From positions 5,449 through 46,377 of the forward strand of contig JAYEKL010000063.1 of NCBI GenBank assembly GCA_034660995.1: 40,929 bases of DNA, in the 5' to 3' direction. The stretch comes from Patescibacteria group bacterium. Its GTDB lineage: Bacteria; Patescibacteriota; Minisyncoccia; JAHIHE01; JAGLIN01. Of the stretch, positions 6,991 through 31,130 are shown one piece after another (positions within the stretch are counted from its first letter, which is position 1; each line of letters starts with the position of its first letter). The notes below the pieces were generated by a model that saw nothing but the letters and a program-made list of their open reading frames with translations, searched no databases and was not told where the DNA came from. Made by a program: the position numbers and the translations under genes.

Positions 6991-7088
6991 TAGGTATGGC
7001 CTTTTCTTATAATTCCCCTCTAGAGAGGGGGTTGGGGGTGTGTTAAAAAGCTTGTTACACACCCCTTACCCCTCTCAAGAGGGGAATA
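6991..7088 (+). repeat. Family-A GC-rich triple-hairpin element, copy A1
   Basis: ttttcttataattcccctctagagagggggttgggggtgtgttaaaaagcttgttacacaccccttacccctctcaagaggggaata. Hairpins are cccctct/agagggg, ggggtgtgt/acacacccc and cccctc/gagggg. Termini are inverted (aattcccctctagagagggg vs cccctctcaagaggggaata). Confidence 0.85.
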
Positions 7089-7143
7089 GTCTCCTGGATG
7101 GCCATCTGGATATTGCTGTTTTGTATAAGGTCACATTTATTAT

Positions 7144-14695: not shown

Positions 14696-14793
14696 AGGCT
14701 CTGCTGATTTTCTTATAATTCCCCTTTAGAGAGGGGGTTGGGGGTGTGTTAAGAAGCTTGTTACACACCCCTTGCCCCTCTCAAGAGGGGAAT
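14696..14793 (+). repeat. Family-A element, copy A2 (inside the ribosomal operon, between rpmJ and rpsM)
   Basis: aggctctgctgattttcttataattcccctttagagagggggttgggggtgtgttaagaagcttgttacacaccccttgcccctctcaagaggggaat. It is followed at 14797-14820 by a D-arm-like cttaaatactaaatacta. Confidence 0.85.
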
Positions 14794-14823
14794 CCCTACT
14801 TAAATACTAAATACTATAAGTGT

Positions 14824-17907: not shown

Positions 17908-18024
17908 GCTCTGCTGATTTTCTTATAATTCCCCTCTAGCCTTGTCCGCCTTGGGAGGGAGAGGGGGGTTAGTTGGTGTGTTAAAAGCTTGTTACACATC
18001 CCTTGCCCATCTCGAGAGGGGAAT
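17905..18024 (+). repeat. Family-A element, copy A3 (with extra insert in first hairpin); begins at the rplQ stop codon
   Basis: taggctctgctgattttcttataattcccctctag + ccttgtccgccttgggagggagag + gggggttagttggtgtgttaaaagcttgttacacatcccttgcccatctcgagaggggaatag. The first three bases (TAG, 17905-17907) are the rplQ stop. Confidence 0.8.
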
Positions 18025-18083
18025 AGCCATTATTTGAGGAAAATAACGAATCTGTCTGTAGTAATACTGTATATATTTTTTAA

Positions 18084-20276: not shown

Positions 20277-20575
20277 GTGTTAAGTATTAAGTATTAAGGT
20301 TTTTGTTGCATGAATATTTGAATTTAACTTATTTGAACCATTTTTGCAAATTAATATTTTTTTAAAAATTGCTTAAACAAACTAGGATTTATTATTCATA
20401 TAATAAAGTAAATAAAGTCTGCTGATTTTTTTATAATTCCCCTCTAGAGAGGGGGTTGGGGGTGTGTTAAAAAGCTTGTTACACACCCCTTGCCCCTCTC
20501 AAGAGGGGAATAATCGGTAGTCCCTAAGTATAAAATATTAGGCTTAATACTTGATACTAAATACTTAATACTAAT
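20277..20575 (+). mobile_element. D-type terminal arms enclosing unrelated cargo that includes A4
   Basis: Left arm agtgttaagtattaagtattaagg (20277-20298) and right arm ggcttaatacttgatactaaatacttaatactaat (20541-20575) are inverted. The interior lacks the D core but contains A4. Confidence 0.55.
20419..20512 (+). repeat. Family-A element, copy A4
   Basis: ctgctgatttttttataattcccctctagagagggggttgggggtgtgttaaaaagcttgttacacaccccttgcccctctcaagaggggaata. Confidence 0.85.
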
Positions 20576-21871: not shown

Positions 21872-24613
21872 ATGAAAAAAGTTTTTAAATTGGTAATATT
21901 TTTAGTTTTAGTGGTTTTAATATGTAATACTGCTAAAGCTGTTAATATAGTTCCTTCTGCTATTATAGGGAATACTATTCAAGATGAAAATGATACTATT
22001 GTTATCACTTTTAATGAGTCAGTAACAGCTGCAGATGGAAATTGGTCTAGTAATGAGTTTACTTCTATTAAGAGTCCAATCGGAGTGTCTTTATCTTTGA
22101 CTAACGCATCTTTTGCTTATAGTGGCAATGTTTTAACAATTACACTGGATTTAAATACGGATAACGCCTATCTTAAAAATGGAAATATTATTGCTGTAAC
22201 TCCCGCTCTAGAAGCTATAGTTGACAGTACTTCTAATTTTTTACCAAATAATGAAGTACGAGGAACAATGGCAGTAACTGGAGATACTAGCGCTCCAATG
22301 GTAGCTTTGACTTATGACCCAGATAGAATAGTGGAATATACTGATTTTATAACCATAACTGCAACTTTTAGTGAGAGCTTGGAAGAATCTTCTCCATGTC
22401 CGTCAATTGCAATTAATACAGAAGGAGATGGAAGTCTAAGCAGTACAAATATGTCTAAGGTTTCTGAAACGGTTTGGACATATATCTGGGAAGTCCCAAA
22501 TGGTATTGACGAAAATGGAGTTGCTACTATTAATATTAATGCTACTGACTTAGCTGGAAATTATAGTCAAGTTGCTGCAAATAACACAAGAAATGTTAGT
22601 AATAGTTATGATGCGGTCAGTCCCAATATTATTGATGATTTGGAAGTTTATGCCACTACTAGCAACACTGCGACTTTAATTTGGAAGGCGCCGGGAGATG
22701 ATGGTGATATTGGCGTAGCCTCAAATTATGATATTAGATATGCATTATCGCAAGCTGAAATTTTGAATTGGTATGCTGCCACTCAGGTTAATAATGAGCC
22801 AAAACCTCAAATTGCCGGAACAAATCAAACTATAACTGTAACTAATCTTGATTCAGACGCGACCTATTATTTTGCTATAAGAACTTCAGACGAAGCGTTA
22901 AATATATCGTCACTGTCCAATATTGCTGATGGAATTACGCTAAAACCGTTAGACGAGACTGCTCCAGATGTTGTGACAGATCTAATAGTTTCTTATGTTA
23001 CTTCAAATTCTGCTGTTTTAAGCTGGATAGCGCCGGGAGATGATCGTGATATTGGAACTGCAACGAGCTATGATATTAGATATTCATCTTCGCGTTTGTC
23101 AACTTTAAATTGGTATGCCGCGACACAAATTAACAACGAACCACAACCGCAAATTGCCGGAGCTAATCAAACTGTAACAGTAAACGGACTTGATGCTAAT
23201 GCGACTTACCATTTCGCTATGAAAACTTATGATGAAGTAGAAAATGTTTCCGCAATATCTAACATAGTCAATGGTACTACCTTAGAGTTAGTAGATACTG
23301 TTACTCCTGATGTCATTACAAATTTAAAAGTTTCTCGTGTTACTTCAAACTCTGCTGTTTTAATTTGGACAGAGACTGGCGATGACGAGGATATTGGAAC
23401 TGCTTCAAGCTATGATATTAGATATTCAGAAAAGCCTATTAACGAAGTTGTTTGGTCGTCTGCGAATAGACTTAATCGTTCGATTAATCCATACATTGAT
23501 GGGGCAAATCAGACTGTTACTGTTACTGGACTTGATCCAGACACAATTTATTATTTCGCCATAAAAGTTTCCGATGAAGCATCAAATGTTTCAGAGTTAT
23601 CTAATATTGCAACAGGGACTACTTTAAAATATCTTGATAGAGTTGCGCCAGAAAGAGTGCGTGAATTTAATATAACAAGCTTATCAAAAATAAATAGCAC
23701 TGCTGTTATAACATGGGTAAATCCTGCTAATAAGGATTTTTCTAATGTGTTATTGATTAGAAGTGAAGATAAATATCCTTCACATATTGATGACGGAACT
23801 GTAATCTATAAAGGAAAAGGTAGTATTTTTAAAGATACTAAAACAGAAGATGAAAAAGTCTATTATTATAATATTTATTCTTTTGATAATGACGATAATT
23901 ATTCATTACCAGCGCAGAAAGTGTTTTTTTCTAATAATACGCTTGTAAAAAAACGCTATGAAGATAAAATTTATGTCGTGATTAACAGTGAAAAGCGCTG
24001 GATTCCAACGCCGGGAGTATTTAATAGAAATAGATATAAATGGGAAAATATTTATGAATTTTATGATAATATTATTGATACTATAAAAACTGGTGAACAT
24101 ATAGAGGATGATGAAGAAATAAAACTTGTTAAAAGTATGAACAGTTCGCGAGTTTATCTTATCAAAGGATACAGAAAAATATGGATTAAGACTATGAACG
24201 CATTTGTTGGCAGTGGATATGAATGGAAAAATATTATTGATATGGATATAAACGAGATAAGGGCTCACAATGATATAAAATTAATAAAGGAAGAGAATGA
24301 TTATCGTATTTATTATGTTCATAGTGAAATTGGAATGAAAAGACTTATTCCAAATATGATAACGTTTTTGTCGTATCCTTCAAGTAAGTGGGAAGATATT
24401 GAAATAGTAAGTAGAGCAATAGCGGATAGTTATGAAAATATAAATCTAATTAGAAGATTTGATGATTGTAATGTTTATCTTCTTGAGAATGGAGTTAAAA
24501 GACGTATTATGTCGCAAGAGGTTTTCAATGCAATGGGTTTTGATTGGAATAAAATAGCGGAAATAAATAATACCGAATTTAGCCAATACGAAACAGGTCA
24601 GAGTATTTATTAG
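21872..24613 (+). CDS. Secreted surface protein with tandem fibronectin-type-III-like domains and C-terminal repeats
   Basis: Signal peptide MKKVFKLVIFLVLVVLICNTAKA. Three 114-aa tandem units have an FN3-like pattern (TSNSAVLxWxAPGDDxDIGTAxSYDIRY...ATYYFAIKxxDE). Four C-terminal repeats follow, of the type VYLIxxGxKRxIxxxxxFxxxGxxWxxI. Confidence 0.8.
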   Translation: MKKVFKLVIFLVLVVLICNTAKAVNIVPSAIIGNTIQDENDTIVITFNESVTAADGNWSSNEFTSIKSPIGVSLSLTNASFAYSGNVLTITLDLNTDNAYLKNGNIIAVTPALEAIVDSTSNFLPNNEVRGTMAVTGDTSAPMVALTYDPDRIVEYTDFITITATFSESLEESSPCPSIAINTEGDGSLSSTNMSKVSETVWTYIWEVPNGIDENGVATININATDLAGNYSQVAANNTRNVSNSYDAVSPNIIDDLEVYATTSNTATLIWKAPGDDGDIGVASNYDIRYALSQAEILNWYAATQVNNEPKPQIAGTNQTITVTNLDSDATYYFAIRTSDEALNISSLSNIADGITLKPLDETAPDVVTDLIVSYVTSNSAVLSWIAPGDDRDIGTATSYDIRYSSSRLSTLNWYAATQINNEPQPQIAGANQTVTVNGLDANATYHFAMKTYDEVENVSAISNIVNGTTLELVDTVTPDVITNLKVSRVTSNSAVLIWTETGDDEDIGTASSYDIRYSEKPINEVVWSSANRLNRSINPYIDGANQTVTVTGLDPDTIYYFAIKVSDEASNVSELSNIATGTTLKYLDRVAPERVREFNITSLSKINSTAVITWVNPANKDFSNVLLIRSEDKYPSHIDDGTVIYKGKGSIFKDTKTEDEKVYYYNIYSFDNDDNYSLPAQKVFFSNNTLVKKRYEDKIYVVINSEKRWIPTPGVFNRNRYKWENIYEFYDNIIDTIKTGEHIEDDEEIKLVKSMNSSRVYLIKGYRKIWIKTMNAFVGSGYEWKNIIDMDINEIRAHNDIKLIKEENDYRIYYVHSEIGMKRLIPNMITFLSYPSSKWEDIEIVSRAIADSYENINLIRRFDDCNVYLLENGVKRRIMSQEVFNAMGFDWNKIAEINNTEFSQYETGQSIY
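22610..23635 (+). repeat. Three exact-length 342-bp tandem coding repeats (FN3-like units)
   Basis: Unit starts (Asp codons of DAVSPN / DETAPD / DTVTPD / next DRVAPE) fall at 22610, 22952, 23294 and 23636, each 342 nt apart. Confidence 0.85.
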
Positions 24614-24652
24614 AGACTAGAAATATAGTTTTAGATTGTAGAAAAACGTTTT

Positions 24653-24962
24653 TGTCATCTCAATCCGCCGGCTGGCGGAGAGAGATCTATAAGCTAAACA
24701 AGTCTCATTTAAACCTTTCTTATTTCCTGTATAGTATAGCTTACAGACCTGCCTGTCCGGCAGGCAGGTTTCTCACCCTATCGGGATTTGAAATGACAGT
24801 TACAAAAACTTGTCATCTCGACTGGAGCGATAGCGAATCTCGAAAAAATGCGTTGATGTCATCTCGACTGGAGCGATAGCGGAATGGAGAGATCTGTGAA
24901 CTGATTAAATCTCACATAGCATAGTTCTTAAATTTCTCACCCTATCGGGATTCGAAATGACA
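24653..24962 (-). repeat. Family-B composite hairpin-repeat cluster, copy B2 (reverse orientation)
   Basis: Contains tgtcatctcgactggagcgatagcg... twice, ttctcaccctatcgggatt(c/t)gaaatgaca twice, and tgtcatctcaatccgccggctggcggagagagatct. The reverse complement matches the B1/B3 order, including the linker ctatacaggaaataagaaaggtttaaatgagacttgttta. Confidence 0.85.
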
Positions 24963-24990
24963 GTTATGAAAAGTGTTCTTTTACACCCTA

Positions 24991-25024
24991 AGTCTATTTT
25001 GCAACGGCCGTTGCAAAATAGACT
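24991..25024. repeat. Perfect 34-bp palindrome
   Basis: agtctattttgcaacgg|ccgttgcaaaatagact: 17-bp arms with no spacer and a GC-rich centre (cggccg). Confidence 0.9.
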
Positions 25025-25055
25025 ATATTTATGAAAGTTTTGGGTATAAAGCAAT

Positions 25056-25083
25056 AAAAGACGATTATGAATCGTCTTTTTTG
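25056..25083 (+). terminator. Rho-independent terminator (ends the FN3-protein transcription unit)
   Basis: Stem gacgatt/aatcgtc (25060-25066 / 25070-25076), 3-nt loop, then tttttt. Confidence 0.7.
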
Positions 25084-25156
25084 TTTTACAATAACGATAG
25101 TTTGTGCTATTGTGAAAACGTTGTATGATTAAAATTAATTCAATATATCAAAAAAT

Positions 25157-26548
25157 ATGACACAAAAAAACGAAGATTTAATGGACAAAATAGTTTCACT
25201 TGCTAAAAGAAGAGGTTTTGTTTTTTCTGGAAGCGAAATTTATGGCGGTTTGGCGAATACTTGGGATTACGGACCTGTCGGGGTTGAATTGAAAAATAAC
25301 ATCAAGCAGGTTTGGTGGAAGTTTTTTGTTAAGAGTAGAGAAGATGTTGTCGGAATAGACGCTGCGATCTTAATGAATAGTCGTGTTTGGAAAACATCTG
25401 GGCATGTGGCTGGATTTAACGATGCTCTTGTTGACTGTCGGGCTTGTAAAGCAAGAATCAGAGTTGATCATTTAATTGAAGACAGTTTGAATATGAAGGC
25501 TGAAGGGATGACCACTGAAGATATGACGAAATTAATAGAAGAAAATGATATTAAGTGTCCAGTTTGTGGAAAAAAAGATTTTACAGATGCCAGAAAATTT
25601 GGTCTTATGTTTAAAACTTATCAGGGAGTGACGGAAGAAGATAAAAATATAATTTATCTTCGTCCTGAAACAGCGCAGGCGATGTTCGTAAATTTTAAAA
25701 ATGTTTTAAATTCTACACACAAAAAAATTCCATTTGGCATAGCGCAAATTGGGAAAGCATTTCGCAATGAAATAACACCTGGAAATTTTATTTTTAGAAC
25801 AGTTGAATTTGAGCAGATGGAACTTGAGTATTTTATTGATGAAAAGAATTGGGAAGAATCGTTTAAATATTGGCAAAAAGAAATGGCAAGTTGGCTTGAT
25901 CATATTGGCATAAAAAAAGAAAATTATTCAATAAGAGAGCATGATAAAGACGAGCTTTCGCATTATAGTAAAAAGACAATTGATTTTGAATACGATTTTC
26001 CATTTGGAACAAAAGAGCTTTATGGACTTGCGTATCGGACTAATTTTGATCTAACAAGTCATCAAAATTCAAGCGGGCAAAATATGGAATATTTTGATAC
26101 AGAAGGTAATAGAAAATATATCCCACATGTTATTGAGCCGACATTCGGAGTTGATAGAACTATTCTCGCGGCAATGGTTGATGCTTATTGCGAGGAAGAA
26201 GTATCAACGGCAAATGAAAAAACAGAGACACGAGTGGTAATGAAATTCAATAAAAATATCGCGCCAGTAAAGGTCGCAATTCTGCCTCTTAGCAAAAAAG
26301 AAAATTTAAGCAAAAAGGCAAAATATATTTTTGATTTACTAAAGACAGAATTCGCCTGCCAATACGACGAATCACAAAGCATTGGCAAGCGCTACCGTCG
26401 ACAAGATGAGATCGGCACGCCGTATTGTGTGACGGTTGATTTTGAGTCGTTAGAAGATGATGCGGTGACGGTGAGAGATAGAGATACGATGGAGCAGGAA
26501 AGGGTGAAAGTTGAGGAATTGGTAGGATGGTTGAAAGATGTTTTTTAG
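25157..26548 (+). CDS. glyQS: Glycine--tRNA ligase (alpha2-type class II)
   Basis: 463 aa with RRGFVFSGSEIYGGLANTWDYGPVGVELKNNIKQVWW, YLRPETAQAMFVNF, GIAQIGKAFRNEITP and EPTFGVDR. The last ~195 nt are visibly more GC-rich than the rest of the gene. Confidence 0.93.
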   Translation: MTQKNEDLMDKIVSLAKRRGFVFSGSEIYGGLANTWDYGPVGVELKNNIKQVWWKFFVKSREDVVGIDAAILMNSRVWKTSGHVAGFNDALVDCRACKARIRVDHLIEDSLNMKAEGMTTEDMTKLIEENDIKCPVCGKKDFTDARKFGLMFKTYQGVTEEDKNIIYLRPETAQAMFVNFKNVLNSTHKKIPFGIAQIGKAFRNEITPGNFIFRTVEFEQMELEYFIDEKNWEESFKYWQKEMASWLDHIGIKKENYSIREHDKDELSHYSKKTIDFEYDFPFGTKELYGLAYRTNFDLTSHQNSSGQNMEYFDTEGNRKYIPHVIEPTFGVDRTILAAMVDAYCEEEVSTANEKTETRVVMKFNKNIAPVKVAILPLSKKENLSKKAKYIFDLLKTEFACQYDESQSIGKRYRRQDEIGTPYCVTVDFESLEDDAVTVRDRDTMEQERVKVEELVGWLKDVF

Positions 26549-26598
26549 AGTGTAAGTTTTTGGTTTCTTAGAGTTTTAGAGTCATTAAAATGTGTTAA

Positions 26599-26660
26599 TG
26601 TCATTCAGTATGAAATAAATTCAGAGTCTGTCCTGAATTCAGTTCAGGAATGACAACTAT
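26599..26660 (+). repeat. B-type hairpin unit (ctgaattcag subtype)
   Basis: tgtcattcagtatgaaataaattcagagtctgtcctgaattcagttcaggaatgacaactat. Its 3' half is nearly identical to 29625-29666. Confidence 0.8.
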
Positions 26661-26710
26661 ACTTTTCGATTAAATTGAAAACTTAATAATCATAATATAA
26701 TATTAATATT

Positions 26711-26845
26711 ATGAAGAAAGATAAAACATACTATATTTATATTATAGCAAACATTACTAACAATGTTTTGTATAATAGTAGAAAAATAATTTACATTGAT
26801 GATCTGGAATTTAATTCGCAAGGCTGTTTTTGCCAGAAGAAGTAA
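26711..26845 (+). pseudogene. Truncated GIY-YIG nuclease gene (only the first ~22 codons are homologous)
   Basis: MKKDKTYYIYIIANITNNVLY matches MKTDRAYYIYITTNITNNVLY of the intact gene at 29206. A 27-nt identical run (caaacattactaacaatgttttgtata) ends at about 26776, after which the frame runs into unrelated sequence. Confidence 0.7.
26779..26794 (+). repeat. Left copy of perfect 16-bp direct repeat tagaaaaataatttac
   Basis: Identical 16-mer at 28310-28325. It lies 2-3 nt after the point where GIY-YIG homology stops. Confidence 0.9.
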
Positions 26846-26848
26846 AAA

Positions 26849-26876
26849 TTGACTTCTTTCTAAAATTTAGTATAAT
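26849..26876 (+). promoter_or_regulatory. Putative promoter of the ATPase gene (inside the cassette)
   Basis: TTGACT (26849-26854), 16-nt spacer, TATAAT (26871-26876). Confidence 0.5.
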
Positions 26877-26913
26877 TTAAATTAGGATAATCAGGATTAG
26901 GATAATTCAAATT

Positions 26914-28269
26914 ATGAAATTTATAAACAGGGAAAGAGAATTAGAAGCGATAAAGGAAAAATTAAATTCTGAGAATTTTGAATTTTATGTTATTTATGGG
27001 CGAAGAAGAATTGGCAAAACAGCTCTTTCTCTAATAAGTGTGAAAAATAAAAAAGCCATTTATTATCTAGCGACCGAAGAAAACAATTTGAGAAGATTCA
27101 AAGAAGTTGCTTCTAAATTAATTCCAGAAGTAAAATACGCCGAAGAAGATTTGGAAGCGATTTTTAGTTTTTTGAAAAATAAGACAATAATTATAGACGA
27201 GTTTCCAAATTTGATAAAAGAAAATCCAAAAGTTGTTTCGGAAATGCAAAGGATTATAGACCTTGTCCTAAGGGAAACAAAAACGAAACTGGTTATTTTA
27301 GGGTCGTCTATATCTATGATGGAAAGCAAGGTTTTGAGCTATCGCTCTCCTTTGTATGGAAGAAAGACCGGACAGATAAAACTGAAACCTTTGAAATTTT
27401 CGCAAATGAGAAAGTTTTTTCCCAAAGCGTCCGCGGAGAGAGCGGTTGAAATTTTCGGTTTTGCCGACGGAGTTCCTTTTTATTTGGAAAAAACAAAGTA
27501 TCCCTTTTGGAAATATTTGGATAAAGAATTAAAAAGCGTAGATAGCTTTTTAAAAACAGAAGTTGATTTTTTAATGAAATATGAATTTTCAGAAACAAGA
27601 ACTTATAAAAAGATTTTAGAAGCGATTGCTCTTGGGAATACCAAGTCAGGTGAAATTAAAAATCAAATCGGATTTAAAAAAACAGATATAACTCCGTATT
27701 TAAAAAATTTAATAGAAACGGAGTTCATTGAAAGAGATGTTCCTCTCTTAGAATCCGCAAAATCAAGAAAGGGAAGATATTATATCAAAGATAATTTTGT
27801 GAATTTTTGGTTTAAATTTATTTATCCAAATCGCAGTTTTATGGAAGAGGGAATTTTTTCCGCTGGTGAAATAAAAGAAAAGTATAACGCTTATCTCGGC
27901 TTTGTTTTTGAAAAAATTTGCCGAGAATTCTTAATTGAAAAAAGGAAAAAATTACCGGTTAATTTTTCAAAAATCGGTAGACAGTGGGGCGCGATTCCCG
28001 GCGCTGAAAAAAGAAAGAATCAATATGAAATTGATCTGCTTGCTTTAAACGATAAAACAAAGCAAATTATTTTTATAGAATGCAAGTGGCAGAATTTAAG
28101 AAAAGGGCAAGCGAGAAATATTTTAGAAGAATTAAGAGAGAAAAGCGGTGTTATTGAATGGAACAATAAAAAGCGGAAAGAATATTTCTGTTTAATGGCG
28201 AAGAAAATTGAAAATAAAAAAGAGCTGAGAAAAGAAGGATTTTTAGTTTTTGATTTGGAGGATTTTTGA
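26914..28269 (+). CDS. AAA-type ATPase of the archaeal-ATPase/DUF234 type with PD-(D/E)xK-like C-terminus
   Basis: 451 aa with Walker A GRRRIGKT and Walker B TIIIDEF. A central wHTH-like segment (KKILEAIALGNTKSGEIKNQIG) follows. The C-terminal YEIDLLAL...IIFIECKW resembles a restriction-endonuclease-fold D...ExK motif. Confidence 0.8.
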   Translation: MKFINRERELEAIKEKLNSENFEFYVIYGRRRIGKTALSLISVKNKKAIYYLATEENNLRRFKEVASKLIPEVKYAEEDLEAIFSFLKNKTIIIDEFPNLIKENPKVVSEMQRIIDLVLRETKTKLVILGSSISMMESKVLSYRSPLYGRKTGQIKLKPLKFSQMRKFFPKASAERAVEIFGFADGVPFYLEKTKYPFWKYLDKELKSVDSFLKTEVDFLMKYEFSETRTYKKILEAIALGNTKSGEIKNQIGFKKTDITPYLKNLIETEFIERDVPLLESAKSRKGRYYIKDNFVNFWFKFIYPNRSFMEEGIFSAGEIKEKYNAYLGFVFEKICREFLIEKRKKLPVNFSKIGRQWGAIPGAEKRKNQYEIDLLALNDKTKQIIFIECKWQNLRKGQARNILEELREKSGVIEWNNKKRKEYFCLMAKKIENKKELRKEGFLVFDLEDF

Positions 28270-28309
28270 TTTTTGTTAAAATATGTTTTCCAAATTGGAA
28301 AAAAAATGA

Positions 28310-28325
28310 TAGAAAAATAATTTAC
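28310..28325 (+). repeat. Right copy of perfect 16-bp direct repeat tagaaaaataatttac
   Basis: Identical to 26779-26794. Its last bases run directly into the glyQS 3' remnant. Confidence 0.9.
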
Positions 28326-28522
28326 CTGCCAATATGACGAATCACAAAGCATTGGTAAGCGCTATCGCCGTCAAGATGGAATTAGCACGCCCGTATTGTG
28401 TGATGATTGATTTTAAAAGTTTAGATGATAACGCAGTAACAGTGAGAGATAGAGATACGATGGAGCAGGAGAGGGTGGGGATTGGGGAGATAAAAAAATA
28501 TTTAGAAGAAAAATTAAGATAG
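28324..28522 (+). pseudogene. Displaced, frameshifted 3' remnant of glyQS
   Basis: Hand alignment to 26354-26548 gives about 123 of 146 identical nt up to ggagcagga, plus a 1-nt indel (gcacgcccg vs gcacgccg) that breaks the frame. It encodes ...CQYDESQSIGKRYRRQD then, after the shift, ...PYCVMIDFKSLDDNAVTVRDRDTMEQERV. It has its own stop at 28520-28522. Confidence 0.85.
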
Positions 28523-28526
28523 ATGT

Positions 28527-29186
28527 ATGAGCGAAATAATTATAGTTAAATTATTGTTTGTCATTGGTCCTATTATGCTTATTACCATGGTAGTGTTTTT
28601 AGCTGGAGTATGGCGCAATAAAAAAGCAAACTATTATAAAGAATTGATGATAAATAATATAATTTGTACGACAAACTTTGAAAAAAACAAATATGGAAAT
28701 TTAAAAGGCATTTATAATAATAAGAAAATATTAATAAAGTTTTATTTATTTGATATATATGCTATGCCAGAAAATTCATTTACAATAAATATTGAAACTA
28801 ATTTTTATGATGCGTCAAAACAAGCATTTGTTCCTAAAACATATTTTATTTTAAAGCAAAAAGAGTCATTTTTTAATTTGAAGAAAAAATCAAATGTAAA
28901 TTCTAATGATTTTGAAAATAGTTTTAATGTGAATAATAAGTATAATTTATCATTTGATAATAAAATTAAACAAAAATTAGAAATTCTTTTAAAAAACAAA
29001 TATTTTAACGCTTATACAAAATTAAAAGTTCAATCACCATCTAAAAGTCATGTTCAAAATAGAGGAAAAGTTGTTTTTGAAAAAATAAACAGTAAAATCA
29101 GTAAAAATTCTGATTCTCTTAAAATGGCTATGGATATTGTGGTTGATATAGCGAAACAGATGGACGAGATGAAAATGGGGAGGTGA
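28527..29186 (+). CDS. Hypothetical N-terminally anchored Asn/Lys-rich protein
   Basis: 219-aa ORF starting 4 nt after the glyQS-remnant stop. It has a TM (LLFVIGPIMLITMVVFLAGVW) and no recognisable motif. Very AT-rich, so its coding status is moderate. Confidence 0.45.
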   Translation: MSEIIIVKLLFVIGPIMLITMVVFLAGVWRNKKANYYKELMINNIICTTNFEKNKYGNLKGIYNNKKILIKFYLFDIYAMPENSFTINIETNFYDASKQAFVPKTYFILKQKESFFNLKKKSNVNSNDFENSFNVNNKYNLSFDNKIKQKLEILLKNKYFNAYTKLKVQSPSKSHVQNRGKVVFEKINSKISKNSDSLKMAMDIVVDIAKQMDEMKMGR

Positions 29187-29205
29187 AAATTAGGATTAAA
29201 GTGTT

Positions 29206-29496
29206 TTGAAAACAGACAGAGCATATTATATTTATATCACAACAAACATTACTAACAATGTTTTGTATATTGGAATAACTAATAATTTACCAAAAAGAAT
29301 ATACGAACATAAAAACGGTTTGGTAAAAGGTTTTTCTAAAAAATATAAAGTTAACAAATTAGTATATTATGAGAATACAAACGATGTAAATTCTGCTATT
29401 GCGAGAGAAAAGCAATTAAAAAATTGGCATCGGGAGTGGAAAATGAATTTAGTAGAAGCTAAAAATCCAGGATTTGTCGAGTTATTTATAAGTTGA
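29206..29496 (+). CDS. Small stand-alone GIY-YIG nuclease (UPF0213/YhbQ-like)
   Basis: 96 aa (TTG start) with YYIYITTNITNNVLYIGITNNLPKRIYEHK (GIY...YIG...R...E), KLVYYE and AIAREKQLKNWHREWK. Confidence 0.85.
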   Translation: MKTDRAYYIYITTNITNNVLYIGITNNLPKRIYEHKNGLVKGFSKKYKVNKLVYYENTNDVNSAIAREKQLKNWHREWKMNLVEAKNPGFVELFIS

Positions 29497-29507
29497 TATG
29501 TTATGCT

Positions 29508-29666
29508 TGTCATTCTGAACTTGTTTCAGAATCTATAGTATATTACAGTAAATTAACCTACAAATCACAGACTAAGTGTAGCAGTCAAAAGATCCTGAAA
29601 CCCGCTATCCAGCAGGCACGGCAAGTTCAGAGCCTGTCCTGAATTCAGTTTAGGGATGACAACTAT
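29508..29666 (+). repeat. B-type hairpin units directly downstream of the GIY-YIG gene
   Basis: tgtcattctgaacttgtttcagaatct ... agatcctgaaacccgctatccagcaggcacggcaagttcagagcctgtcctgaattcagtttagggatgacaactat. Confidence 0.8.
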
Positions 29667-29667
29667 G

Positions 29668-29793
29668 TTTGAGTTGAGCCTAGGTTGTACTATCCAAAGA
29701 TTGGGGGGAGTAAGAATTGAGGATTTGGTTGTAGTAACAAAAACTGGATGCAAAAATCTTACAAAATTTCCGAAGTTTTTGGAGATAAAATAG
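29668..29793 (+). pseudogene. 3' remnant of an M24-family Xaa-Pro peptidase gene
   Basis: The frame ending at TAG 29791-29793 reads F-ELSLGCTIQRLGGVRIEDLVVVTKTGCKNLTKFPKFLEIK. GGVRIED...VT..G...LT..PK.L is the conserved C-terminus of PepP/PepQ-type enzymes. No upstream part of the gene is present. Confidence 0.55.
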
Positions 29794-29817
29794 AACAAAT
29801 AATTTCTACCCGGTTTT

Positions 29818-30125
29818 AGCTGATTTTCTTATAATTCCCCTCTAGAGAGGAGGTTGGGGGCAGGGTAATTCACTCTTGACAAAATAAACCTGTCATTCCG
29901 ACCGGAGCAAGCGAGGCACGAGCGAGCGGAGTGGAGGAATCTGTAAACACAATTATGTTTTGCTTATTTAGCAAATTACATTTTATCCGCTCACAGATCC
30001 CTCGGCTCCTATCGTTGCTCGGGATGACAAAAATGAGAAGATTTTAGGAGGAGTGAATTACCCTGGGGTTGGGGGTGTGTTAAAAAGCTTGTTACACACC
30101 CCTTGCCCCTCTCAAGAGGGGAATA
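29818..30125 (+). repeat. Family-A element, copy A5, split by insertion of another element
   Basis: The left part tagctgattttcttataattcccctctagagaggaggttggggg (to 29860) and right part gggttgggggtgtgttaaaaagcttgttacacaccccttgcccctctcaagaggggaata (from 30066) together reconstitute an A copy. Confidence 0.85.
29861..30065 (+). mobile_element. 205-bp MITE with perfect 15-bp terminal inverted repeats, inserted into A5
   Basis: TIRs cagggtaattcactc / gagtgaattaccctg. It is flanked by duplicated ggttggggg (29852-29860 and 30067-30075). The interior holds two opposed B-type units (tgtcattccgaccggagc...ggaggaatctgt and cagatccctcggctcctatcgttgctcgggatgaca). Confidence 0.85.
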
Positions 30126-30161
30126 ATTGGTAAAATAAATTTATAATTAATTTAAAAAACA

Positions 30162-31130
30162 ATGACAAAGAAAACAAACACAATGACAGTTAAACAAATT
30201 TATGATCTGGCGGTTAAGATGGGCGTTAAAACGGATTTTAGATCTAAGGAGGATATGGAAGATCTTCTAAAAAGAGAAAAAGATAGTTATAATAATCTTA
30301 AGAAGGAAGAGAAAAAAGATTATAATATGGAAAGATTGGTAAATCCATATTTGGATTCTGGTATTCTTAATTTAAGTTCAGACAAACCAGTTAAAAGAAT
30401 ATTATCTGGAATAGATATGGATGAGGCAGAAATATTACTAGCGGATAGGCTTGGTAATATTGACCTTGCTTTAGGACATCATCCTCTTGGCAAGAACCTT
30501 GCGAATTTAGATTCAGTAATGCATCTCCAAGCAGATCTTCTTAGCCAATATGGTGTTCCGATAAATATTGCTGAAGGACTTTTGAAAGAAAGGATTTCAG
30601 AAGTTAGCAGGGGAGTTTCCCCGATAAATCACAATAAGCCCGTTGATATGGCTAGGATTTTAAAAATTAACTTAATGAACACTCATACTCCTTGTGATAA
30701 TATGGTTGCAAAATTTTTGGACGATAAAATTAAAGGGGCAAAAATAAAGTATGTATCTGATTTGCTTAAATTATTAAAATCAATTCCTGAATATAATATT
30801 GCTATAAAAAATGGAGCTGGACCACGCCTTTTTTCTGGAAGCGAAGATAATCGGGTTGGTAAAATTGCTTTAACTGAAATTACTGGAGGCACTTCGGGGT
30901 CAGCAAAAATTTATGAAAAAATGGCTCAGGCTGGAATTGGAACAATTATTGGAATGCATATGTCCGAAGAACATAAAAAAGAAGCAGAAAAAGCTCATAT
31001 AAATGTTGTAATTGCTGGTCATATTTCTAGTGATTCTATTGGAATGAATTTATTTTTAGATGAATTAGAAAAGAACGGTATTAAAGTTATTCCTTGTTCA
31101 GGATTAATTAGGGTTAAAAGATTTAAATAA
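30162..31130 (+). CDS. NIF3-family (DUF34) dinuclear-metal protein
   Basis: 322 aa with metal-ligand style motifs GHHPLG, THTPCDN and AGHISSDSIG. Confidence 0.7.
   Translation: MTKKTNTMTVKQIYDLAVKMGVKTDFRSKEDMEDLLKREKDSYNNLKKEEKKDYNMERLVNPYLDSGILNLSSDKPVKRILSGIDMDEAEILLADRLGNIDLALGHHPLGKNLANLDSVMHLQADLLSQYGVPINIAEGLLKERISEVSRGVSPINHNKPVDMARILKINLMNTHTPCDNMVAKFLDDKIKGAKIKYVSDLLKLLKSIPEYNIAIKNGAGPRLFSGSEDNRVGKIALTEITGGTSGSAKIYEKMAQAGIGTIIGMHMSEEHKKEAEKAHINVVIAGHISSDSIGMNLFLDELEKNGIKVIPCSGLIRVKRFK

Follow-up and report, generated by a model that had tools for sequence, protein, structure and literature searches.

Homology-facilitated illegitimate recombination, abbreviated HFIR, is reportedly known from the work of de Vries & Wackernagel 2002 and of Prudhomme et al. 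2002. The process combines one homologous anchor with one illegitimate joint (review, PMC3240628). Here a stretch of 40,929 nucleotides of genomic DNA from a member of the Patescibacteria (candidate phyla radiation) was analysed around glyQS, the gene for glycine--tRNA ligase, the 3' end of which is present twice. This whole stretch is called the window, all positions are given in its numbering, and the features from glyQS to the NIF3-like gene on its right lie on the forward (+) strand. The duplicated glyQS end is most likely an ordinary recombination scar at a cargo hotspot and can be regarded as largely explained. As in HFIR, the illegitimate side in the window is a 7-nt microhomology joint between non-homologous sequences, codon 39 of an M24 peptidase gene and codon 399 of glyQS, and DNA of a diverged relative would have been inserted with loss of resident sequence, no recombinase gene being needed. 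The case differs from HFIR as described in that it is read from a natural scar in which the anchor-side crossover was not located. It also differs in that the incoming DNA would be homologous to the resident locus, so that an unrecombined copy of the gene end was left behind.

C-terminal displacement in Rhs/CdiA loci is said to have been described by Jackson et al. 2009. In type VI secretion system (T6SS) effector loci of V. cholerae, displacement has left orphan 3' ends downstream of the new module and HFIR is the proposed mechanism (PMC5361080). The glyQS locus resembles these systems in that the gene keeps a constant 5' part with one 3' end in frame, and in that a remnant without a start (28321-28522) lies beside its former neighbour, ORF219. 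It differs from them in that the gene encodes an essential housekeeping aminoacyl-tRNA synthetase and not a polymorphic toxin, that there is no toxin or immunity content, and that there is a single glyQS remnant and no array. Since the two glyQS ends are functionally equivalent, no diversifying role is evident. The event is also non-recurrent, as a second glyQS 3' end was found in 0 of ~130 other glyQS loci fetched from metagenomes.

The intact glyQS (25157-26548) encodes a ligase of 463 amino acids with Pfam matches to tRNA-synt_2b and, over the full length of the domain, to HGTP_anticodon. GlyRS proteins labelled Pacebacteria, Parcubacteria or Patescibacteria share 88-93% identity with the product. 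The last 198 nt of the gene (26351-26548, codons 399-463), here called A1 and characterised by alignment, by GC content at third codon positions (GC3) and by diagnostic sites, are homologous to 28321-28522, ~2 kb downstream, here called A2. The active copy A1 has a W-type tail (...GWLKDVF) while the displaced copy A2 has a Y-type tail (...KYLEEKLR), a +1 frameshift and its own stop. Alignment of A1 with A2 gave 123 of 146 nt identical up to GGAGCAGGA with one gap, which is exactly the count made by hand in an earlier reading based on the letters alone (the sequence-only reading), and 153 of 198 nt identical over the whole gene end. The frameshift in A2 results from an additional C within the run at 28390-28392 (ACGCCCGTA vs ACGCCGTA). 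The stop codon of A2 is kept at 28520-28522 and ORF219 starts 4 nt later, at 28527. An in-frame TAA (28318-28320) lies directly 5' of the A2 homology. The duplication itself, the 1-nt insertion breaking the downstream frame and the downstream copy's own stop with the next open reading frame (ORF) 4 nt on had all been recognised in the sequence-only reading, and all were found at the positions proposed.

The divergence of the two copies was computed over the conserved 53 codons (159 nt) with the frameshift repaired. The synonymous divergence (dS) was ~0.8 and the ratio of nonsynonymous to synonymous divergence (dN/dS) was 0.13, with 17 of the 28 differences in the first 159 nt at third positions, in agreement with the earlier remark that many of the differences are synonymous. 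A start-less duplicate cannot diverge under purifying selection, thus both ends must have worked in different genomes for most of the time since they separated. The two gene ends originate from different lineages and not from a duplication in place, and the earlier suggestion that they differ in origin is borne out by these values. The same values make it very unlikely that the segment between glyQS codon 399 and M24 codon 39 was duplicated in tandem in a single genome through unequal exchange at the heptamer AATTTAC and that one copy was overwritten later by homologous recombination with a diverged strain. Such a history would explain the M24-5'|glyQS-3' junction as a classic novel joint, and both units do hold a glyQS end, a hairpin repeat, the start of a GIY-YIG gene and M24 debris. 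However, besides the objection that a non-functional duplicate could not have diverged in this manner, the units differ in their genes (ATPase in one, ORF219 in the other) and in the order of their elements, and an extra replacement event is needed. Gene conversion between the copies was also considered and rejected, as the shared synonymous variants (GAC, CCG) are not private to them and occur in L112, L143 and L156 as well (L numbers denote loci and contigs used for comparison). Among the GlyRS proteins, P0030 has the body of the P0036 clade and a C-terminal third identical to P0008, a mosaic which reflects either glyQS recombination among co-occurring strains or chimeric assemblies.

A2 is a decaying pseudogene and the decay is asymmetric, being seen in the remnant alone. 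Six substitutions in A2 occur in none of 12 reference gene ends and five of them hit otherwise invariant residues (QDEIGTPYCVTVDFE -> QDGISTPYCVMIDFK). These singletons are mostly changes from GC to AT and are present besides the 1-nt insertion. By the same comparison A1 has one singleton, which is synonymous. A reading frame of 62 codons (28334-28522) persists in A2; its end is the native stop, which lies 4 nt before ORF219. An in-frame ATG at 28402 arose through a Thr-to-Met change. In a public gene call (Logan contig L012) the frameshifted remnant 28334-28522 appears as a 62-aa protein with an HGTP_anticodon match; this call is a pseudogene fragment.

The left edge of A2 is formed by part of an M24 (Xaa-Pro) peptidase gene. 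This gene is present in the window as three fragments only, two overlapping 5' pieces flanking an ATPase cassette and one frameshifted 3' piece, and it is intact in L001, L002, L007, L096 and L217. Fragment a (26776-26815, codons ~34-47) is fused behind a truncated GIY-YIG gene and is 95% identical to the M24 gene of L002 and 88% identical to that of L001. Fragment b (28294-28325, codons ~30-39, 90% identity to the M24 gene of L002, E 5e-4) abuts the remnant, in the 50 nt that separate it from the ATPase cassette. The alignment of fragment b to M24 scores above all 500 shuffles (p<0.002), and fragment b matches fragment a at 19 of 21 nt. The 3' remnant (29672-29792) covers the last ~40 codons, has a 1-nt insertion and is 82-84% identical to the M24 ends of L001 and L002. 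The M24 gene has thus been lost in the window lineage, likewise in L004 and L095. A glyQS origin for the spacer at 28270-28320, raised by a tblastn match, was rejected because local alignment prefers M24 (p<0.002) and gives p ~0.5-0.7 for upstream glyQS.

A 7-nt sequence, AATTTAC, is common to M24 (ATAATTTACATT) and glyQS (AGAATTTACCTG), and in the window it occupies 28319-28325. Comparison with fragment a and with the intact glyQS genes of L095 and L004 located the junction here. The M24 sequence (...ATAATTTACATT), the intact glyQS of L095 (...AGAATTTACCTGCC) and the window (...ATAATTTACCTGCC) meet at AATTTAC, thus the left edge of the remnant is an illegitimate joint, with microhomology, of M24 codon 39 to glyQS codon 399. 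The sequence-only reading had drawn up an inventory of the supposed insert as a new gene end, a hairpin, a GIY-YIG gene fragment and an ATPase. All of these are present, but two M24-peptidase fragments and the M24|glyQS joint were missed. Given these fragments and this joint, the 'insert' is better understood as a piece of another strain's homologous locus, which points to ordinary recombination.

The window would then be a fusion of two diverged versions of one islet, joined at the M24|glyQS joint. The left half, which is L007-like, would comprise the W-type glyQS, hairpin, GIY-YIG stub, M24 fragment, ATPase cassette and M24 5' end. The right half, which is L095/L096-like, would comprise glyQS from codon 399 to the stop (Y-type), ORF219, GIY-YIG gene, M24 3' remnant and NIF3-like gene. 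Both half-arrangements occur naturally in relatives, and it is because both are intact there that the window can be divided in this way. The counterpart of the left half is the order glyQS-x-ATPase-M24 in L007. For the right half, L095 and L096 have an ORF219 homologue 4 nt after an intact glyQS, and in L002 a distant homologue follows such a glyQS after 6 nt. The segment of A2 plus ORF219 is collinear with the intact glyQS-ORF219 of L095 (80.6%), L096 (81.2%) and L142 (75%). ORF219 is normally the first gene after glyQS, and the junction of the remnant with it is of the ancestral type, with the same 4-nt spacing as in L095 and L096, so that the operon-like junction proposed in the sequence-only reading has indeed been retained. 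A strict linkage between tail type and ORF219 was rejected, since ORF219 accompanies a W-type tail in L142 and is missing beside the Y-type tail of L004.

Between glyQS and M24, this Patescibacteria lineage has an islet of variable cargo. It is empty (29 nt) in L217 and contains one repeat only in L001, two ORF219-like genes in L002, and ORF219, a 189-aa gene and AbiEii in L096. In L007 it contains an 89-aa gene and an ATPase cassette (85% identical at the nucleotide level to that of the window), with an intact M24 gene 12 nt later. Downstream of glyQS, L004 has the 189-aa gene and AbiEii without M24, L095 has ORF219 and an M24 3' remnant, and L218 has a 385-aa gene followed by M42, not M24. 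A search of genome contigs with GlyRS gave, among the matches listed, only Firmicutes GlyRS (57-60% identity), which was useless for synteny. The 189-aa gene and AbiEii, a member of an abortive-infection toxin family, fill the same islet in L004-L006 and L096, and this supports viewing the interval as a defence/cargo hotspot. It resembles other hotspots flanked by core genes in that the interval from glyQS to M24/NIF3 is fixed and the cargo varies by strain, and in that this cargo includes AbiEii and a candidate ATPase recognised by PADLOC. It differs in being located in a small candidate-phyla genome and in having an unusually legible junction scar.

Taken in this way, DNA of a related strain (~80-85% identical) would have recombined homologously on one side and would have been joined illegitimately on the other side at the 7-nt microhomology AATTTAC. 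The outcome would be an unrecombined, promoterless glyQS 3' end, which later acquired a frameshift and several damaging substitutions, while the gene with the complete reading frame would carry the essential function. The pathway that we infer, one homologous crossover plus one illegitimate join and hence HFIR, is probably the correct one. Several points weigh against it. The homologous crossover was not located, and sliding identity to L001, L002 and L004 gave no clear step on either flank; this lack of a mosaic step is explained by the nearest relatives being only ~85-90% identical on both flanks. No genome was found that is near-identical and has one of the two parental arrangements. Scars for which the proposed event does not account are present in the left half, namely the fusion of a GIY-YIG stub to M24 codon 34, a filler of 28 nt and a pair of overlapping M24 5' fragments around the ATPase, so that its history must include more than one event. 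Lastly, the link between 26548 and 26630 is contained in the window contig alone, as discussed with the assembly below. A mosaic breakpoint within glyQS was considered, as identity to L001/L002 falls from 0.90-0.95 to ~0.80 after nt ~1000. It was rejected, as L001 compared with L002 drops alike and the flanks range over 0.75-0.91.

A Campbell-type event would also duplicate the gene end. A fragment that began at glyQS codon 399, spanned the ATPase cassette and ended at M24 codon 39 would have been circularised at AATTTAC and inserted by a single crossover in the glyQS 3' end of a glyQS-ORF219 recipient, thereby duplicating a 200-nt arm. Partial duplications of homology arms (109-950 bp) around inserts are the experimental signature of single crossovers by circles (PMC3240628). 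Since the recipient-type arrangement is without the M24 5' arm, normal two-arm replacement would be impossible in it, and the overlapping M24 fragments around the ATPase would fit an earlier event of a like kind. However, such a crossover predicts reciprocal hybrid repeats, whereas the remnant is Y-type and the active copy W-type over their whole lengths. A1 matches W-type reference tails at the diagnostic sites throughout, and A2 agrees with the Y-type references over its whole extent, beginning with its first bases (positions 3, 4 and 15). The blocks of 20 and 29 nt that are identical between A1 and A2 are internal conserved coding sequence, and differences between the copies begin at the third base. 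The crossover would need to fall within ~3 nt of the edge of the arm. The missing hybrid structure thus disfavours the Campbell-type event and we consider it unlikely.

Two directions of transfer are compatible with HFIR at this locus. The sequence-only reading took the remnant to be the older gene end and the active end to be foreign, partly because the latter is GC-richer than the rest of the gene. The GC3 of A1 is indeed an outlier, at 0.52 compared with 0.33-0.42 for relatives' gene ends, 0.26 for the glyQS body and 0.37 for A2, and the closest gene end to A1, that of L112 (86%), belongs to a more distant body. In favour of a native active end, W-type ends are found on all nine of the closest GlyRS bodies, the remnant with ORF219 resembles more distant lineages, and the close relative L002 has only 35%-identical ORF219-like genes. 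Thus the unusual composition of the active end stands, but as its type is that of the nine closest GlyRS relatives and the remnant type is that of more distant ones, the greater age of the remnant is not established. If the ATPase half was incoming, then the anchor was on the left, as in the sequence-only reading. If the ORF219 half was incoming, then the anchor lay to the right, and the glyQS native to this genome never included the remnant. The idea that the glyQS end was passed to the distant L007/L096 lineage was also considered and rejected, since the local identity reflects amino-acid conservation and L007 has the most distant tail in the identity matrix.

The arrangement had been taken in the sequence-only reading as the signature of a site-specific integrative element or a homing-endonuclease cassette, which would have inserted at the glyQS terminus and brought a surrogate gene end with it. 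The topology is like the attL/attR duplication made by genomic islands that target gene 3' ends, where direct repeats of the 3' end flank the insert and the gene stays intact. In addition, GIY-YIG genes are present nearby and the ATPase has a PD-(D/E)XK-like DUF234 domain. However, the ORFs in 26549-28320 are a 44-aa chimera and the ATPase_2+DUF234 protein, with no recombinase or integrase domain found by Pfam, as the sequence-only reading had itself observed for integrases. Unlike at such islands, the repeat edges lack an identical core, the left one being the fusion with M24, and the repeats are diverged alleles of 75-84% identity. The GIY-YIG gene adjacent to glyQS is a stub of the N-terminal 21 codons (26711-26773; 81% nucleotide and 71% amino acid identity to the start of the full gene at 29206). 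The full-length gene (29206-29496; Pfam PF01541, E 1e-18) encodes 96 aa which make up the catalytic domain only, without a DNA-binding domain. No link between GIY-YIG and glyQS was apparent in the ~130 other glyQS loci, homologues being found only in contigs of the same population together with one weak match in L108, and none of these loci has a second glyQS end. The ATPase cassette itself occurs in unrelated contexts without glyQS repeats. The element model is therefore largely refuted and must be considered highly improbable.

The duplication could also be an artefact if the contig had been mis-threaded through a multicopy hairpin repeat, so that glyQS and the ATPase-remnant-ORF219 block were not adjacent or came from different strains. 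This repeat, H1 (26617-26660), lies after a 68 nt spacer from the glyQS stop and has a 91%-identical partner, H2, at 29623-29666; the hairpin fold is unexceptional (z = -1.8). Logan contigs L012, L013 and L014, from two sequencing runs, match the window from 26630 to 29534 at 99.9-100%. All three begin at 26630, inside the hairpin repeat, and two end at 29534. As both points are inside repeats, the assembly graph must branch there, and as the Logan contigs start at 26630, the 82-nt link from the glyQS stop (26548) to 26630 is found in the window contig only. This link is made plausible by synteny, as relatives place glyQS, ATPase, ORF219, M24 and NIF3 all in the same locus. The remnant's own junctions are reproduced in both runs, thus the ATPase-remnant-ORF219 junctions are real DNA. 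The M24|glyQS joint cannot have been made by an assembler, its overlap being 7 nt whereas the independent Logan contigs were built with k=31. Furthermore, 4 of 44 positions differ between H1 and H2, which have no 31-mer in common. Were the link wrong, there would still be a displaced glyQS end with M24 sequence fused to it. An assembly artefact is thus improbable.

The ATPase cassette (26844-28274) was characterised using Pfam, PADLOC and a promoter scan. The scan gave a near-consensus promoter, TTGACT-16-TATAAT, at 26849-26876, and the coding sequence at 26914-28269 encodes 451 aa with ATPase_2 and DUF234 matches in Pfam, the latter with a PD-(D/E)XK-like motif. The protein matched the PADLOC profile PDC-S27 (E 1.1e-44, residues 2-435 on profile positions 3-455 of 474) and, judged by this family match, is a candidate single-gene defence ATPase. 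The unit recurs in other contexts in L011 (96%), L007 (85%) and L010 (75%), and the ATPase_2+DUF234 gene moves as a promoter-plus-gene unit with sharp boundaries and with neighbours that vary by contig. Apart from a few bacterial relatives, the closest homologues of its product are from archaea, and that of Methanotorris, for example, is 60% identical over the full length. Homologues beyond ~66% identity are mostly archaeal (Methanocaldococcus, Thermococcus, 52-60%). These archaeal homologues suggest inter-domain transfer. The filler at 26816-26843 (28 nt) and the spacers gave no matches elsewhere. No Rfam family was found in 24500-30300 and there is no tRNA gene nearby.

On the right-hand side, ORF219 (28527-29186) encodes a membrane-anchored protein of unknown function with homologues of 59-70% identity and with no match in Pfam or PADLOC. 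Following the full-length GIY-YIG gene there is a dispersed intergenic repeat (29507-29600), which L001 and L002 also have, at unrelated sites. A NIF3-like gene (30162-31130, Pfam DUF34_NIF3), syntenic in L001, L002 and L004, is the islet's conserved flank on the right. The start of this gene (30154-30178; 25 nt comprising the ribosome-binding region and six codons, MTKKTN) is identical to that of an M42-peptidase gene, unrelated to it, in L011 (1487-1511), and compared with the start of the M42-peptidase gene in L095 (5969-6010) it shows 83% identity. This common 5' start module may represent the islet's recombination boundary on the right-hand side.

Other repeats are present in the window. 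A dispersed palindromic repeat of 60-95 nt (GGGGTTGGGGGTGTGTTAAAAAGCTTGTTACACACCCCTT...) is found between genes at 6994-7089, 14700-14795, 17964-18026, 20418-20513, 29816-29909 and 30031-30126. Further repeat families are found at 63-300/34414-34699/24811-24968 and at 2584-2664/5511-5591/9580-9660/10512-10592. Upstream of glyQS, a 913-aa surface protein with fibronectin-III repeats (21872-24613) contains three 342-nt internal tandem repeats of 62-81% identity.

The glyQS duplication adds one more case, in an unusual host and an unusual gene, to a known kind of event, and is not a new system, mobile-element class or mechanism. Annotators should be warned that a pseudogene fragment underlies the 62-aa 'HGTP_anticodon' call made downstream of the ATPase, and the glyQS-M24 interval can be flagged for searches for candidate defence genes in this lineage. 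It is possible, though doubtful, that the last ~200 nt of glyQS and the first ~100 nt of M24 act as homology arms which allow cargo such as the PDC-S27 ATPase, AbiEii and ORF219 to pass between strains without integrases, and that the displaced gene end is kept as a leader for ribosome loading or translational coupling of ORF219. If the part concerning homology arms is true, then the window would record the outcome when one arm is missing in the recipient. In any case, the window provides a clean natural example of cargo exchange at a hotspot flanked by core genes in the small, integrase-poor genomes of candidate phyla, in which one can still read the microhomology joint, the homology arm that did not recombine and what is left of the neighbouring gene.

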